Source: a virus (Duplodnaviria > Heunggongvirae > Uroviricota > Caudoviricetes). From it: 14,139 bases of DNA. The translations under genes were made by a program, and so were the position numbers. Below the pieces are notes generated by a model. That model saw nothing but the letters and a program-made list of their open reading frames with translations, was not told where the DNA came from and ran no database searches. The stretch lies in IMG/VR virus record IMGVR_UViG_2703718781_000011; one strand, given 5' to 3'. Below are positions 10,935 to 11,161 of this stretch, piece by piece; position 1 is the stretch's first letter; every line of letters starts with the position of its first letter.

Positions 10935-10987
10935 TTTCTGGTGACGTTTGGCGGTATCAGTTTTACTCCGTGACTGCTCTGCCGCCC
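10935..10987 (+). ncRNA. dicF: DicF small RNA (53 nt; known ftsZ translation inhibitor) with terminator T-run to 10992
   Basis: Sequence TTTCTGGTGACGTTTGGCGGTATCAGTTTTACTCCGTGACTGCTCTGCCGCCC followed by TTTTT matches K-12 dicF as I recall it. It sits about 170 nt upstream of dicB, as in K-12. Confidence 0.85.
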
Positions 10988-10996
10988 TTTTTAAAG

Positions 10997-11144
10997 TGAA
11001 TTTTGTGATGTGGTGAATGCGGCTGAGCGCACGCGGAACAGTTAAAACCAAAAACAGTGTTATGGGTGGATTCTCTGTATCCGGCGTTAATTGTTAACTG
11101 GTTAACGTCACCTGGAGGCACCAGGCACCGCATCACAAAATTCA
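10997..11144 (+). repeat. Long-range inverted repeat able to form a 19-bp RNA duplex bracketing the dicF-dicB spacer
   Basis: tgaattttgtgatgtggtg (10997-11015) is complementary to caccgcatcacaaaattca (11126-11144): 14 perfect bp, one G-U, then 4 more bp. The 3' arm ends 6 nt before the dicB SD. The loop contains two GTTAAC palindromes. Confidence 0.6.
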
Positions 11145-11161
11145 TTGTTGAGGACGCGATA

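Follow-up and report, generated by a model that had tools for sequence, protein, structure and literature searches.

In rRNA operons, long-range helices are formed around structured RNAs, and RNase III cuts both strands of these stalks, so that the inner RNA is freed and the downstream message is detached. RNase III sites are also found in early polycistronic RNAs just upstream of gene starts, as in the lambda N leader and the intercistronic regions of phage T7, and in the case of lambda N the cleavage affects translation. Among the substrates of RNase III, a 2009 review (PMC2777011) lists the metY-nusA site and the dicA-dicF-dicB intergenic regions. For the dicBF operon of Escherichia coli K-12, processing of the full-length mRNA by RNase III to produce a 72-nt form of DicF has been reported, as related in PMC5069750 and PMC9438474, both citing Faubladier 1990. 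KilS, an sRNA of the Rac prophage, was described by Bar et al. 2021 (PMC8175672). Finally, STnc100 and PasD have been described as Hfq-associated prophage sRNAs of unknown function (bioRxiv 10.64898/2026.05.13.724894), STnc100 being among the most frequently annotated sRNA families of enterobacteria.

The DNA analysed here (the window) is a stretch of 14,139 nucleotides from a virus of the Caudoviricetes (IMG/VR record IMGVR_UViG_2703718781_000011), and positions given below are those of the window, on its + strand unless otherwise indicated. BLAST searches revealed 100% identity to a lambdoid prophage of E. coli E2865 and to PPompW phages, and the RefSeq annotation of the identical locus gives the gene order repressor, ydfC, hypothetical, dicF, spacer, dicB, DUF1482, exonuclease, xis and int. 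The locus is of the same type as the K-12 dicBF region, to which it is 95.7% identical over 10900-11273, but the window corresponds to another lambdoid prophage, and the C-terminus of its DicB diverges from that of K-12. An earlier note on this DNA had reported the 53-nt dicF sequence with its terminator, and both were confirmed: the sRNA, terminator hairpin included, spans 10935-10987 (1649382-1649434 in the K-12 annotation), the Rfam DicF model RF00039 matched 10936-10987 over model positions 1-52 with 76.7 bits, above its gathering score of 48, and the U5 tract of the intrinsic terminator follows at 10988-10992. A simple terminator scan overlooked this terminator, the loop of which exceeds the limit of the scan. 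The dicB gene (62 aa) occupies 11162-11350, as supported by its ORF, by a Pfam match (PF05358 DicB, 129.5 bits) and by the RefSeq annotation of the identical locus; its start ATG lies at 11162 and is preceded by a Shine-Dalgarno sequence, GAGGA, at 11150-11154. A promoter scan of the dicF-dicB spacer found none on the + strand. Elsewhere in the window, on the minus strand at 3670-3819 and 147-386, there are an antitoxin RNA, sok, of the hok/sok type (103.9 bits) and a pair of tRNA genes.

The spacer is bracketed by a 19-nt inverted repeat, 10997-11015 (TGAATTTTGTGATGTGGTG) and 11126-11144 (CACCGCATCACAAAATTCA), with 18 Watson-Crick pairs and one U.G pair, exactly at the coordinates and with the almost perfect pairing previously noted. 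Both minimum-energy and centroid folds extended this helix (P1) to 21 contiguous pairs, with its 5' arm at 10995-11015 and its 3' arm at 11126-11146, and showed it closing a multibranch domain of four hairpins. The segments folded were 10936-11200 and 10990-11150; their z-scores were -4.5 and -6.4, and none of 200 shuffled sequences folded as well. This helix is also the longest contiguous one, counting Watson-Crick and G.U pairs, in the region 10700-11400, where 199 of 200 dinucleotide shuffles produced helices of 10-17 bp and one reached 21 bp, so that a chance origin of the stalk is unlikely. The K-12 arms have identical spacing and differ only by one additional G.U pair. Regarding the distance to dicB, the Shine-Dalgarno sequence does start 6 nt downstream of the 19-nt arm, although the arm itself ends 5 nt, and not 6, before it; from the end of the 21-bp helix only 3 nt are left. 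An alternative partner for the inner portion of the 3' arm (CCGCAUCAC) could be GUGA(A)UGCGG, just to the inside of the 5' arm (11013-11022 versus 11005-11015), both segments being invariant.

Conservation of the arms across dicF loci, a check that the earlier note had proposed, was examined in 118 loci fetched with a pattern based on dicF only. All 21 stalk pairs were kept in 101 of them, the remainder keeping 12-16 contiguous pairs around a bulge or mismatch. To measure covariation, 81 distinct copies were collected with a seed on the inner motif that excluded the arms, and were then aligned. RNAalifold recovered from this alignment the stalk and three inner helices. Paired combinations occupied 96.2% of the alignment cells of the stalk, with 74 compensatory cells and changes on both sides in 12 of 18 pairs; none of 500 shuffles reached these values, and slid controls paired at 30-52%. 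The inner helices were paired in 98.9% of cells, with 70 compensatory ones. The stalk helix is thus under selection, and as many of its G.U pairs are possible in the + strand alone, it is the RNA of this strand that forms it.

Four hairpins are enclosed by the stalk. H1 (11019-11034, GCGGC/GCACGC) is a prediction of the fold, and its sequence is invariant. H2 (11035-11082) was detected in the fold and in the alignment, with a covarying base (11035-11041 with 11075-11082) and an apex (11042-11074) that behaves as a hypervariable cassette, with at least eight unrelated versions of differing lengths in otherwise near-identical copies. H3 (11083-11109) has 10 bp and an invariant loop, GUUAACU, and compensatory changes were found in four of nine pairs. 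H4 (11111-11125, CCUGG-AGGCA-CCAGG) also has an invariant loop, and a U-A pair in its stem is replaced by G-C in 12 sequences. The loop and junction motifs are invariant across the 81 copies, which come from four element types. The stalk is therefore the basal stem of a covarying RNA domain of ~150 nt between the DicF terminator and the dicB start, and what had been taken for a dicF-dicB spacer is, although correctly described as bracketed by the arms, a conserved structured RNA and not a plain spacer. The invariant CAGUUAA at 11039-11045 is complementary to the invariant UUAACUG of the H3 loop (11094-11100), and the loop region (11093-11100) includes the palindrome GUUAAC. Judging from these complementarities, CAGUUAA and the H3 loop may form a pseudoknot or serve as a kissing-dimer site.

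At the gathering threshold, Rfam revealed nothing in the dicF-dicB spacer, and a relative surfaced only in a permissive, E-value-based scan: STnc100 (RF02076) matched 10985-11194 over the full-length model with 38.7 bits (E 6e-7), below the gathering score of 47 bits. Scores of 34-43 bits against the same model were obtained for seven homologous loci, namely those of K-12 Qin, a Rac-type prophage, P7, D6, pF374-2 and two Klebsiella copies. The architecture is that of STnc100, with a closing stem around hairpins that include the CACCNGGAGGCACCNGGCACC element, and the RNAalifold consensus and covariation agree with it. Shared features are the closing stem, the hairpins, the GUAAC-type loop, the CACC-GG-AGGCAC-GG-CACC hairpin and junction, in which H4 represents the motif common to the spacer domain and the STnc100 consensus, and the prophage context in which STnc100 and PasD are both found. 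In contrast, H1 of the spacer domain has another sequence, and its P1 is 21 bp long versus 7-10 bp. Canonical STnc100 copies from viral contigs, which score 77-165 bits, have P1 duplex energies of -10 to -24 kcal/mol, whereas the P1 of dicF- and kilR-linked copies reaches 21-30 bp and -31 to -38 kcal/mol. The setting also differs, as the spacer domain belongs to the early leftward operon and immediately precedes a gene start, while canonical STnc100, with a terminator of its own, is found downstream of tRNAs or stx in the late region. These canonical copies are often arranged in tandem directly after phage tRNA clusters (L220:811-1488, L209:626-1773, L200:8044-8560). From its score and architecture, the spacer RNA appears to be a divergent, sub-threshold relative of STnc100 with an extended, RNase III-cleavable stem. 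It is this relationship that is newly recognised here; in the literature on STnc100 and PasD we found no paper linking either of them to the dicF-dicB spacer.

The segment bounded by the helix was also detected by BLAST away from dicF-dicB, before kilR in Rac-type prophages, including the K-12 Rac, and in Klebsiella prophages. It is present as well in P7, D6 and related phage-plasmids, where it separates tRNA genes from tciA in the ban operon, which is under the control of C1, a position after tRNAs that is echoed by the canonical STnc100 copies. The copy in the K-12 Rac prophage (NC_000913.3 1418249-1418502, minus strand, L320; a further Rac copy is L123:2414-2694) starts directly after the annotated sRNA KilS (b4833), which is a DicF-like RNA scoring 39.1 bits with the Rfam DicF model, below its gathering score. 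The KilS-kilR arrangement is therefore like that of the window, with a DicF-like sRNA and its terminator followed by the stalk, an STnc100-like domain and a cell-division inhibitor gene, except that its 3' arm has one bulged A and a U.G pair and that the downstream gene is kilR. The P1-like copies (P7, L125:2001-2116; D6, L126:2001-2121; and L124:1441-1552) have a 9-bp closing stem and are unannotated in their records, and the tciA gene that follows is TerB-like.

The RNase III site after dicF is already known for the K-12 operon, so that in proposing that RNase III could act on the helix and thereby separate DicF and the dicB mRNA the earlier note restated the processing site of 1990, and several published data sets agree with this role. 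A 72-nt DicF would end at 11006 (10935 plus 71), the twelfth nucleotide of the 5' arm, which places its 3' end at ~11005-11006. In Table S1 of Gordon 2017, a dicF-dicB site flagged as known is given at K-12 1649470, the point of highest rnc/wild-type coverage, with 26 reads in the rnc mutant versus ~0 in the wild type; this position corresponds to 11023 in the window, inside the predicted excised RNA. Moreover, the Term-seq data of Adams 2021 (supplementary files 1 and 3) contain, under two growth conditions, a K-12 + strand 3' end at 1649584, 25 nt before dicB, whose Rho score of 0.95 and intrinsic-terminator score of 1.2 make it neither a Rho-dependent nor an intrinsic terminator. It corresponds to 11137, within the 3' arm. 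The same Term-seq listing holds no kilR, sieB or ydaE entries for Rac.

The positions of these ends can be compared with the geometry of an RNase III cut. Cleavage after 11006 with a 2-nt overhang predicts the partner cut at 11136, and the mapped end, 11137, is 1 nt off. Taken literally, ends at 11006 and 11137 give a 3-nt stagger, a deviation of 1 nt from the 2-nt rule that is within the sizing error of the 72-nt gel estimate. In vivo, pairing is found at both positions between the cuts, most often as G-C or C-G (Altuvia 2018, PMC6212723), and here G11005 is paired with C11136, together with either U11004-A11137 or U11006-A11135. As for length, RNase III depends on about two turns of dsRNA, around 20-22 bp with few interruptions, and the stalk offers 21 contiguous pairs. 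The stem left by the mapped cuts (GAUGUGGUG/CACCGCAUC) has 9 bp, as in canonical STnc100 and the P1-type copies.

An RNase III helix was also predicted on the other side of DicF, where folding and an inverted repeat indicated a long hairpin at 10725-10810 (~10725-10750 with ~10785-10810). RNase III is required for a 190-nt form of DicF according to Ragunathan 2023 (PMC10448788), where only an upstream RNase III site is mentioned, and 190 nt counted back from the DicF terminator lead to ~10798-10801, within the 3' strand of this hairpin. The upstream hairpin is thus probably, according to its predicted fold, where RNase III generates the 5' terminus of the 190-nt precursor, and as it fits the published cut, DicF would be bracketed by two RNase III helices. 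The earlier note, which mentioned the participation of RNase III in dicF maturation, had missed this second, upstream helix. In published Term-seq data a strong 3' end is also seen at ~10921-10922 (K-12 1649368/9), 12-13 nt upstream of the DicF 5' end and after a hairpin, and it probably marks the upstream product of the RNase E cut after trimming.

In our judgement, the 21-bp duplex is quite probably an RNase III processing stalk, constituting the extended P1 of an RNA domain of the STnc100 kind of ~150 nt. According to this model, transcription past the DicF terminator would allow the arms to pair. RNase III would then cleave the 5' arm at ~11005/6 and the 3' arm at 11137, leaving a short 3' stagger. 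The cut would supply the 3' end of the alternative 72-nt DicF, detach a dicB-ydfD message that carries a 5' monophosphate and begins ~24 nt upstream of the AUG, and free the inner folded RNA, of ~131 nt, with its 9-bp stem. On the basis of the mapped K-12 ends, this predicted excision product, an STnc100-like core with the residual P1, would span 11007-11137. We infer that the ends in both arms come from one double cut, that the inner RNA persists as a discrete species and that the copy of the window acts like that of K-12, from which all the experimental data come. The ~0 wild-type reads of Gordon 2017 at 1649470 count against a strong accumulation of the excised RNA, although they could also be caused by the loss of small RNAs from the libraries or by a very low expression, the mutant itself giving 26 reads. 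The bracketing and the proposed double-cut layout are the same as in the rRNA operon stalks and metY-nusA, whereas the release of the inner RNA from the spacer is what we propose here. In contrast to the local hairpins of lambda N and T7, the stalk spans 110 nt around a conserved domain, and no translational effect is predicted for dicB.

A different possibility is that the stem merely closes a functional RNA domain, either a cis element or an Hfq-bound RNA of the STnc100/PasD kind, and that cleavage by RNase III represents incidental turnover. The invariant loops and junctions in the 81 copies do reflect more constraint than a cleavage stalk would need, the domain is homologous to STnc100, described as Hfq-associated like PasD, and P1-like phage copies keep only the 9-bp stem. 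Nevertheless, conservation and covariation of the outermost 12 bp are specific to those copies preceded by a terminator of the DicF or KilS type. The core fold gains nothing from this outer part, which instead brings the helix to about two turns, as required by RNase III, and the mapped ends fall inside the stem. We therefore regard a closing stem without a processing role as unlikely.

The proximity of the stalk to dicB raised the question of whether it acts on translation, as the earlier note had suggested in proposing that the helix gates dicB. The stalk, or its extension onto the CCUU of the terminator, would then hide or crowd the dicB ribosome-binding site, and the RNase III cut would switch translation on, a mode of action for which the lambda N leader is a precedent. 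Besides the 3-nt distance to the Shine-Dalgarno sequence, this is favoured by one fold in which the terminator-tail CCUU pairs with GAGG after a small internal loop, by a cost of opening the -19..+15 footprint that is ~4-5 kcal/mol lower after the cut, and by the kilR-type loci, where an extended arm reaches the GG of the Shine-Dalgarno sequence. However, in ViennaRNA ensembles the Shine-Dalgarno sequence was paired locally with 11214-11220 whether the RNA was cut or uncut, with a probability of being unpaired of 0.01-0.06, so that removal of the element does not free it. Opening of the -14..+6 region cost 9.6-10.7 kcal/mol in the uncut RNA versus 12.4 in the cut one, thus without any easing, and the Rac (kilR) copy gave no consistent gain on cutting. 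Moreover, homologous loci, whose downstream genes differ, have between 3 and ~27 nt separating the stalk from the Shine-Dalgarno sequence, which indicates that occlusion is not the conserved constraint, and there is no experimental report of such a switch. Taken together, these data make a translational gate improbable. The predicted pairing itself joins the Shine-Dalgarno region (11151-11157) to codons at 11214-11220, ~50 nt downstream, in both processed and unprocessed RNA, and constitutes a possible local translational brake on a toxic gene.

Lastly, an inverted repeat acting at the DNA level, as a site of protein binding or of recombination or as the termini of a miniature mobile element, was considered. 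It is suggested by the 19-nt repeats flanking ~110 bp, by the GTTAAC palindromes inside the spacer and by mosaic joints, immediately beyond the 3' arm, at which the downstream gene differs. It was rejected as extremely improbable because the pairing is kept through sequence changes, with many G.U pairs that would become A.C mismatches in DNA or on the opposite strand, because the inner hairpins likewise show RNA covariation, and because the element is present in every dicF locus examined, with no empty sites and no target duplications. A coding function was likewise discarded, both for an in-frame upstream extension of dicB (11057-11350) and for a minus-strand ORF (10963-11253), since the lengths of the copies differ by non-multiples of 3, the changes are compensatory and not synonymous, and the genes attached to this sequence are unrelated.

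For work on phage-encoded RNAs, the interest of the stalk may lie in what it closes, a covarying relative of STnc100 and PasD that is strongly conserved, and the published end mapping in K-12 already fits the release of this domain from the dicBF transcript. The dicBF operon therefore offers a concrete genetic system for the function of STnc100-type RNAs, with derepression of dicBp, rnc mutants and compensatory mutants of the arms as tools. Tentatively, we suggest that operons of the dicBF type have a third product, an STnc100-like RNA of ~131 nt released by RNase III (11007-11137; ~1649454-1649584 in K-12), in which case the stalk would be an adaptation and the cassette portable. If this possibility were true, the long stalk would let an RNA of the STnc100 family mature inside a polycistronic early transcript, without its own promoter and terminator. 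The result would be a portable cassette, an sRNA plus its processing stalk, placed ahead of toxic early genes (dicB, kilR, and tciA in P1, P7 and D6), and the release of the domain would explain why the same cassette is found ahead of these cell-division or toxicity genes.
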